Origin: Eledone cirrhosa
Taxonomy: Eukaryota
Length of the DNA stretch: 64,000 nt
Assembly: GCA_964016885.1 (NCBI GenBank)
Contig: OZ024761.1
Location: 558,001-622,000 of the forward strand
Direction: 5' to 3'
Below, piece after piece: positions 55,557 through 56,608 of this stretch; within the stretch, counting starts at the first letter, position 1; every line of letters begins with the position of its first letter. The notes below the pieces were generated by a model that saw only the letters and a list, made by a program, of their open reading frames with translations, ran no database searches and had not been told where the DNA came from. Made by a program: the position numbers and the translations under genes.

Positions 55557-56604
55557 GGGCGTGCATCTGTGCGCTTATGTTAGTTGATATATTAAATTAT
55601 CTATATTTATCTCCAAATCACTGATTTGTCGAGCAAACTTGTCAAAACCACTTCTAAAAAAATTTTTTTTGGGGTGTTAGTAGGCGTCAGTCATCTTACC
55701 ATCCCATTCCTTCTAACTAGCCTCTGTGTCACGTGATTGATTCTTTAGAATCGGCCATTTGACTTGAAGCAGTGAGAATTTCGGTACATAGAATCCAGTC
55801 CTCGCAAGCTGTTCGATCTACCGAATTATTATTATTTTTATATGAGCCGCCAGTGTCCGCGCATTGCCTGGAGACTTAACTGAGAATAGACTCCCTGATG
55901 ACGCAATGAATTCTCGACAGTTGGATTACGTAACTGTCTTTATCCCATTGCAGAAACTAATTAGTTGGAGTGAAAATTTAAGTAAGAAAAAAAAAATTTT
56001 TTTTTTTAATTTTTTTAAAAAAATATTTTCTTATTTTACGTCCTTTATATTATTGTTCTGCATTCTCCTGCATTGAACCACCTAGGTACTATGACATAAC
56101 CTGTGTATTTGCTGGCATGGGCGTGCATCTGTGCGCTTATGTTAGTTGATATATTAAATTATCTATATTTATCTCCAAATCACTGATTTGTCGAGCAAAC
56201 TTGTCAAAACCACTTCTAAAAAAATTTTTTTTGGGGTGTTAGTAGGCGTCAGTCATCTTACCATCCCATTCCTTCTAACTAGCCTCTGTGTCACGTGATT
56301 GATTCTTTAGAATCGGCCATTTGACTTGAAGCAGTGAGAATTTCGGTACATAGAATCCAGTCCTCGCAAGCTGTTCGATCTACCGAATTATTATTATTTT
56401 TATATGAGCCGCCAGTGTCCGCGCATTGCCTGGAGACTTAACTGAGAATAGACTCCCTGATGACGCAATGAATTCTCGACAGTTGGATTACGTAACTGTC
56501 TTTATCCCATTGCAGAAACTAATTAGTTGGAGTGAAAATTTAAGTAAGAAAAAAAAATTTTTTTTTTTTTATTTTTTTAAAAAAATATTTTCTTATTTTA
56601 CGTC

Positions 56605-56608
<4 letters not shown>
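55557..56608 (+). mobile_element. Retrozyme-like tandem of a 562-bp HHR unit
   Basis: 55557-56118 repeated from 56119; HHRs 55891-55970 and 56453-56532: ctcc-CTGATGA-[51 nt]-GAAAC-taatta-GTT-ggag; (TA)n flanks. Confidence 0.85.

Follow-up and report, generated by a model that had tools for sequence, protein, structure and literature searches.

The locus studied here, at positions 55557-56608 of a 64-kb stretch of forward-strand DNA from Eledone cirrhosa (the window; 64,000 nt of contig OZ024761.1), raises the question of what kind of element it is and from what template such copies are made. The initial annotation had described it as a young tandem dimer that should release a 562-nt ribozyme-cut RNA, and as the best candidate in the window for a currently competent retrozyme. 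We show here that the locus is a member of a new retrozyme family, that the retrozyme class assigned to it earlier is right, and that its most informative features lie in the structure of the family rather than in this one copy.

The locus is a short array inserted in a TA microsatellite

Self-comparison of the sequence gives a 562-bp period that starts at 55557 and runs for 1.87 units in total, bordered on each side by a TA tract:

55547-55556, no strand: (TA)5, left remnant of the target microsatellite
55557-56118, forward strand: unit 1, 562 bp, defined by period and identity
56119-56608, forward strand: unit 2, 490 bp, stopping at a fixed 3' site (S1), an end that recurs in family copies
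56608-56653, no strand: (TA)23, right part of the target microsatellite, fused to S1

Copy 2 differs from copy 1 by 2 mismatches in 494 aligned nt, both bordering A/T runs, and lacks the final 72 nt of the unit. The description of the locus as two near-identical direct units is therefore correct as to near-identity but not as to two full units. The TA flanks and the lack of a meaningful ORF were both correctly recognised, the longest stop-to-stop frames within the element being 76 and 84 aa and running through A/T runs. No LTR is found at the element, whose flanks consist of TA and, outside both tracts, of other, unrelated dispersed repeats. Both junctions lie inside (TA)n, where the borders of any target-site duplication cannot be read.

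The array ends exactly at S1, one of two fixed 3' ends in the family. Its left end (55557) appears to be a 5' truncation point and not a natural start, because the 5' ends of the family's arms are scattered over the whole unit. The copy is thus the common one-armed form that ends at S1, ordinary and young. It is the sole copy of the 562-bp family within the 64-kb window, so that the rank of best candidate holds there; genome-wide it does not, and a special competence of this locus is unsupported, given that the genome carries much longer arrays that are equally young.

A hammerhead with a family-wide mismatch under stem II

Both units carry the same ribozyme, which was assigned as follows:

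55890-55971, forward strand: hammerhead 1, type I, predicted to cut after 55966, with covariation across six subfamily sequences
55890-55894 with 55967-55971, forward strand: stem I of hammerhead 1, 5 bp
55895-55901, forward strand: core CUGAUGA of hammerhead 1, with an extra C at 55902
55903-55908 with 55946-55951, forward strand: stem II of hammerhead 1, 6 bp, with a hairpin extension
55952, forward strand: extra A, followed by GAA at 55953-55955 (core GAAA)
55955-55966 and 56517-56528, forward strand: 12-nt palindrome AACTAATTAGTT, the inner 10 nt of which are the candidate shared stem III of a double hammerhead
56452-56533, forward strand: hammerhead 2, identical to hammerhead 1, predicted to cut after 56528
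55967-56528, forward strand: predicted cut-to-cut RNA, 562 nt

The CUGAUGA core of hammerhead 2 begins at 56457. The hammerhead palindrome AACUAAUUAGUU is present in each unit with a GUU cut predicted at its end, and the GUU triplets do end at 55966 and 56528, as noted at the outset. Although the conserved core (C3-A9, G12-A14, A15.1-U16.1 and an NUH triplet) is complete, stem II does not close directly on it, a C and an A being opposed between the two. Both of these nucleotides, together with the G-C pair that follows (G10.1-C11.1), are kept in 6/6 aligned subfamily sequences, and U17 occurs in 99 of the first 100 copies listed. Decay is rejected as the cause of the C·A mismatch and the GUU triplet, since both are family-wide; they do mean that the ribozyme cannot be called intact without qualification. 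The claim of a 12-nt stem III needs a similar adjustment: the palindrome is there, but by standard numbering only its inner 10 nt would belong to the active fold, because the outermost pair would tie up A14 and U17, two core positions.

The hammerhead is not a chance motif, since a 25-nt form of it has 4,281 matches in the genome against 0 for the reversed control, and its stems covary across subfamilies. In the covariation test 94% of 84 cells were paired, a level reached by 0/500 shuffles, which, with six related sequences, is not to be read as a probability; the second pair of stem II is represented by four different Watson-Crick pairs among the subfamilies. Rfam did not detect the hammerhead at this locus at gathering score, nor at E up to 10, and its weak miRNA and snoRNA matches were rejected as arising from TA and A/T runs.

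By nearest-neighbour folding of the whole array, a model that leaves tertiary contacts outside, the cost relative to the free ensemble is 6.0 kcal/mol for the double hammerhead, 8.5 kcal/mol for two single hammerheads and 4.5 kcal/mol for one, and the palindromes of the two copies pair with a probability of ~0.18 in the free ensemble. The predicted cut-to-cut RNA folds better than 100/100 shuffles (z -3.5), and the unit, with a GC content of 0.36, is 62% paired when folded as a circle. It is possible, on these predictions, that the locus could release one 562-nt unit if it were transcribed and both ribozymes cut. Published Penelope hammerheads with an extra nucleotide after A9 and a palindromic helix III cleave weakly even as dimers (PMC4209133; here and below, statements on published systems refer to the accessible portions of the papers cited).

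An abundant family with a young layer

A shorter motif that includes the sister families finds 12,944 matches for the superfamily as a whole and 1 in the control. The first 100 motif places group into 58 loci, from which ~2,500 loci can be extrapolated. A DNA search of the species' own genome (3.0 Gb) gave at least 220 matches with 40 of 309 candidates scored, mostly arrays at 97-99% identity, and arrays of the family reach 14 full units. Hammerhead spacing in 58 unbiased loci ranges over 538-594, with 562 in 2/29 spacings, and the units of long young arrays are mostly 557-561 nt; the 562-nt length is a homopolymer-length variant. Sister units measure 521-550 bp and are 70-91% identical. The view that the locus is young is borne out by 24 of the 154 full units from 33 young loci, which are identical to the window unit outside masked homopolymer zones, and the window unit is part of the family's youngest layer.

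Insertions end at two fixed sites

We fetched 58 consecutive loci on one contig (C1) for an analysis of ends. Family copies end in (TA)n at one of two 3' sites, S1 at unit position ~490 and S2 at ~49 of the next unit, ~80 and ~200 nt past the cut site. At the window locus the stretch between them was placed as follows:

56047-56167, forward strand: 'tail' between S1 and S2, ~120 nt; both sites are read through here

Sister families end at homologous sites, and S1 and S2 are candidate start sites of reverse transcription. An automatic caller assigned S1+S2 to 34 of the 58 loci, S1+S1 to 0, S2+S2 to 2, one end to 21 and none to 1, so that S1 and S2 stand at opposite ends in 34/36 two-ended loci (p 2e-8). 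Inspection by eye found both S2+S2 calls and one S1+S2 call (L093) to be false and two true S1+S2 pairs (L074 and L084) to have been missed, which leaves S1+S2 at 35/37 two-armed loci, the remaining two carrying one non-standard end. The 5' ends, in contrast to the fixed 3' ends, are scattered: of the 155 recorded in a set of 95 loci, one of which yielded no 5' end, 3 fall no more than 5 nt from the cut site, where 3.0 are expected.

Two fixed 3' ends, a tail on one arm, variable 5' truncation and an AT-rich target are hallmarks of Penelope mobilisation, and all are present here; this Penelope-type end structure had been missed by the initial annotation. The published Penelope footprint comprises an inverted, 5'-truncated second arm, a tail at one end and a preference for (TA)n (10.1101/2021.04.23.441226; PMC3846280). 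In vitro, AT-rich DNA is cut and extended on both strands by a purified lizard Penelope protein, for which the borders of the tail are set by two internal start sites on the RNA (PMC11167929). The end structure of the present family matches both the tail found on one end of inverted insertions and the two internal starts of reverse transcription.

We consider it probable that the locus is a 5'-truncated, one-armed insertion of a young non-coding hammerhead tandem repeat, that is, of an animal non-LTR retrozyme, likely mobilised in trans by a Penelope-like reverse transcriptase and endonuclease. Mobilisation by Penelope is supported by thousands of dispersed copies, (TA)n targets, scattered 5' and fixed 3' ends, two-armed insertions and variants shared between arms. 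In the mechanism that we propose, arrays would be transcribed, probably from an internal promoter, and a weak, dimer-dependent hammerhead would cut the transcripts in part, leaving in the RNA pool both multimers that had escaped cutting and circles, closed by ligation, of one unit or several. Both strands of (TA)n would then be nicked by the Penelope enzyme, and a single multi-unit RNA would template two cDNAs, one begun at S1 and the other at S2, which would afterwards join head to head. At the window locus, one cDNA would instead have been joined directly to the other end of the target. Counting against this reading are the search for an autonomous partner, which found none in 1.25 Mb of fetched loci, the scant content of the unit in RNA-labelled runs, a tail longer than the published ones, and shared variants whose registers differ between arms (see below).

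Variants shared by both arms and the nature of the template

Naturally marked units allow the template to be examined. Variants were analysed by exact matching in 33 young loci picked from the top matches and not at random, 15 of which have full units in each of their arms. Four variants are present in at least two units of their locus but missing from others, and 4/4 of them, a small number of loci, are found in both arms; a variant repeated within one arm only was seen in 0 cases among the 33 loci, and 30 variants are confined to a single unit. T71C has exactly two copies in the genome, one per arm, three hammerheads from each end, in the same register. All four genome copies of C82T belong to one locus, where it alternates every second unit, marking the first, third and fifth units of one arm and the first of the other. 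G310A marks unit 4 in one arm and, in the eight-unit opposite arm, units 3 and 5, with two single copies elsewhere, and G216A is offset by one unit between the arms of its locus. The registers of shared variants differ between the arms at 2/4 loci. A further variant, T246A, is found in all 11 full units of both arms at one locus (12 motif matches), and T489A is likewise fixed in all units of a long two-armed array. The one other copy of T246A has a single flanking hammerhead and is unable to release a monomer; this copy (on C18) was rejected as the parent of the T246A array on account of that single hammerhead and an extra variant.

The simplest reading of these patterns is that both arms derive from one multi-unit RNA, the alternating variant fitting a dimer circle and the fixed variants a monomer circle. 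A linear cut monomer is rejected as the template, since 5' ends are not enriched at the cut site. We tentatively propose, while rating it at somewhat less than an even chance, that on a single RNA the Penelope enzyme starts one cDNA at S1 and a second at S2 and travels around circles comprising one unit, two units or more. On this view the C4 locus, where the variant marks alternate units in each arm, would preserve the trace of a dimer circle, and the C13 locus, where every unit is marked, that of a monomer circle; incomplete cutting, owed to a deliberately weak C·A/GUU hammerhead, would then belong to the life cycle. Source arrays absent from the assembly could explain such 'private' variants without any circle.

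An alternative that we regard as rather doubtful is that the ribozyme is a passenger, only uncut linear read-through transcripts being copied and arrays being lengthened later by unequal crossing-over, with gene conversion spreading the variants. Several observations agree with this: unprocessed RNA is the main substrate of the lizard Penelope protein and hammerhead mutants left its insertion in vitro unaffected (PMC11167929), the 5' ends in our family ignore the cut site, and the G310A pattern requires a template of at least six units. However, crossing-over and conversion predict repeats within one arm, of which none was found as against four variants common to both arms, and 5' truncation by itself only shortens arrays. 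In addition, the core, the G10.1-C11.1 pair and the stems are conserved, with compensatory changes, across subfamilies that are 70% alike.

It is unlikely, in our judgement, that efficient double cleavage yields a 562-nt monomer that circularises, accumulates and serves as the sole template for new copies, with the window locus as an active source. Circles of this kind are indeed formed by coral, mussel and axolotl retrozymes, and good cleavage in dimeric form is on record for an axolotl hammerhead whose stem II has a U·U mismatch at its base (PMC7229834); moreover, both hammerheads of the locus are identical to the youngest form in the family, and T246A and T489A, fixed throughout long two-armed arrays, fit a monomer circle. 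Yet variants limited to some of the units in both arms, as seen at four loci, cannot come from a monomer circle. The active folds lie 4.5-8.5 kcal/mol above the free ensemble, no RNA-labelled run contains the unit (see below), and of nine frog dimers predicted to be active only one was cleaved in vitro (10.64898/2026.07.22.740005).

For rotifer Penelopes it has been proposed that a single cDNA folds back and primes itself (PMC3846280), and the head-to-head arms seen here could likewise stem from such self-priming rather than from two priming events. Some junctions do lie within palindromes (L100), and arm lengths are compatible with fold-back at 22 of the 33 loci that were tested out of 35 (two were omitted, their short arm being undelimited). 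At the other 11/33, however, the arm lengths are unattainable by fold-back copying of either arm, and at the T71C, G310A and G216A loci each arm includes sequence that the other lacks. Two priming events are favoured on the strength of these arm lengths, and we hold self-priming to be quite improbable. That the tandem at the locus is an artefact of assembly can hardly be credited, even though its copies differ at homopolymer borders only, because the array, with a unit number that is not whole, halts precisely at S1 and because the head-to-tail junction recurs in hundreds of loci and is spanned in independent DNA runs, whose coverage represents reads from the whole family and is not specific to the locus.

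Relation to known retrozymes and Penelope-like elements

On its testable features the element is an animal non-LTR retrozyme, and its anatomy upholds the retrozyme class originally given to it. As in the retrozymes described in PMC7229834 and 10.64898/2026.07.22.740005, the units are non-coding and tandem with one type I hammerhead each, GC content is below 50% (here 36%), copies are dispersed as monomers to multimers and Penelope-like elements coexist in the genome. The unit had been called larger than usual, which is true with respect to the 170-400 nt of PMC7229834 but not with respect to the 51-972 bp of the 2026 preprint (10.64898/2026.07.22.740005; Li, Clavereau and Pollet 2026), in which ray-finned fish units average 650 bp. 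The hammerhead differs in being of the Penelope type, with a 5-bp stem I and a long stem II, and not canonical. Animal non-LTR retrozymes are also characterised by self-cleavage of the transcript, by expression as linear and circular RNA of unit length and, when present, by target-site duplications longer than 4 bp. Fixed paired ends and two-armed insertions, as seen here, are without description for retrozymes in the accessible text of these two papers.

With Penelope-like elements that have a pseudo-LTR tail (PMC11167929; 10.1101/2021.04.23.441226; PMC3846280) the family shares 5' truncation, partial tandems, an inverted second arm joined at its 5' end, a tail at one end and AT-rich or (TA)n targets, as well as two 3' ends downstream of the hammerhead (PMC11167929). 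It differs in having no ORF, in a tail of ~120 nt as against the 30-40 bp published and, among the fetched loci, in having no sequence link to an autonomous element. The ribozyme itself resembles the Penelope variants of PMC4209133 in its short helix I, long helix II, extra nucleotide after A9, invariant G-C pair beside it and palindromic helix III suited to dimers, but has an additional A before G12 that creates the C·A mismatch, a GUU triplet and a further hairpin extension on stem II. The features of plant LTR retrozymes, a type III hammerhead within LTRs and a 4-bp target duplication, are unlike those found here (type I, tandem units, TA targets).

The 2026 preprint ties retrozymes to Penelope pseudo-LTRs by distribution and phylogeny (10.64898/2026.07.22.740005). 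As far as the accessible published text goes, copying of retrozyme circles by Penelope has been proposed without demonstration, and the origin of Penelope tandem and inverted structures is called undefined. A literature search, largely without subscription papers and supplements, found no paper on the 562-bp family or on variants shared between arms; the supplements of PMC7229834 and 10.64898/2026.07.22.740005 may list related families. The window locus adds little alone, the interest lying in the family-level evidence on the template. In a young family whose start sites are fixed at two positions and whose units bear natural marks, the template question becomes concretely testable, namely where reverse transcription starts, whether one RNA serves both arms, and which of three forms that RNA takes: monomer circle, multimer circle or uncut transcript.

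Autonomous partner, RNA data and a candidate promoter

Long open frames with RT plus GIY-YIG exist in the genome. No autonomous element with a matching hammerhead or tail was found by tblastn and hammerhead scans in 1.25 Mb of fetched loci, nor by a GIY-YIG family search together with 20 long-ORF loci, and none of 50 loci picked for GIY-YIG matches, out of 10,595 candidates, was homologous to the hammerhead or tail. An RT/GIY-YIG ORF is absent from the unit and, in the fetched loci, is joined to the family only at one chimeric junction. At this junction (L071:2915-5016, minus strand; G000:C1 near 37.07 Mb) an autonomous-type Penelope copy, extending to ~10 nt before its usual 3' end, is fused directly to the 5'-truncated end of a retrozyme array without a TA tract; a template switch would account for this single case, as would an insertion accompanied by deletion of target DNA. 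Two further loci were rejected as autonomous partners, in one of which (L217) a long TA tract separates the sister copy from the Penelope element, while in the other (L156) the sister copy is in the opposite orientation.

Part of the unit is present in 20 of the 24 sequencing runs listed. RNA-labelled runs, which are not shown to be of E. cirrhosa, contain at most 0.04 of the unit's words, and the two that were tried placed no reads on 56039-56534; this word share was therefore rejected as evidence of expression. Two DNA data sets cover all 30 bins of the same interval, including the tandem junction, with many family variants. Read-end peaks in a RAD run were set aside because a RAD library cuts at fixed sites.

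A conserved motif upstream of the first hammerhead may act in transcription:

55728-55743, with a second copy at 56290-56305, forward strand: TCACRTGATTGATTC, candidate internal promoter element

Aligned units that are 70-100% identical all keep it (13/13), and similar motifs occur in the ends of autonomous elements of the same genome; we take it to be a candidate E-box promoter element. Just past the hammerhead, AGTAAG at 55982-55987 is also kept at the same place in 13/13 aligned units; it resembles a 5' splice site. Penelope elements are known to carry introns.

Other repeats and motifs

The left neighbour of the locus, between two TA tracts at 55319-55546, is a piece of another tandem family, which has a 615-bp spacing in L054. 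On the right, 56904-57208 and 59033-59329 are direct copies of a CCAAACGT 8-mer array with shared flanks, ~2.1 kb apart and 96% identical over 305 nt. Hammerhead-like motifs of other families occur in the window on the minus strand at 6670, 22338, 22719, 54994 and 62368 and also at 7138, 9043, 21117, 22468, 43797 and 62541; in the type at 7138, a U·U mismatch stands at the foot of stem II. There are two Penelope-like ORF fragments, one at 2606-3136 (forward strand) with a weak GIY-YIG match (E 0.001) and one at 16410-17527 (minus strand) with no Pfam match. Part of a frame at 27549-28091 (minus strand) weakly matches trypsin (Pfam E 0.023, under the cut-off) and is possibly a serine-protease exon, and a tRNA-like sequence at 30594-30657 (minus strand), barely above the Rfam cut-off, is possibly a SINE head. 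Elsewhere in the genome, a 525-bp sister family forms a 22-unit array (G000:C4:18610324-18621699) in which identity to the reference unit alternates between ~100% and 98%, possibly another period-2 pattern.
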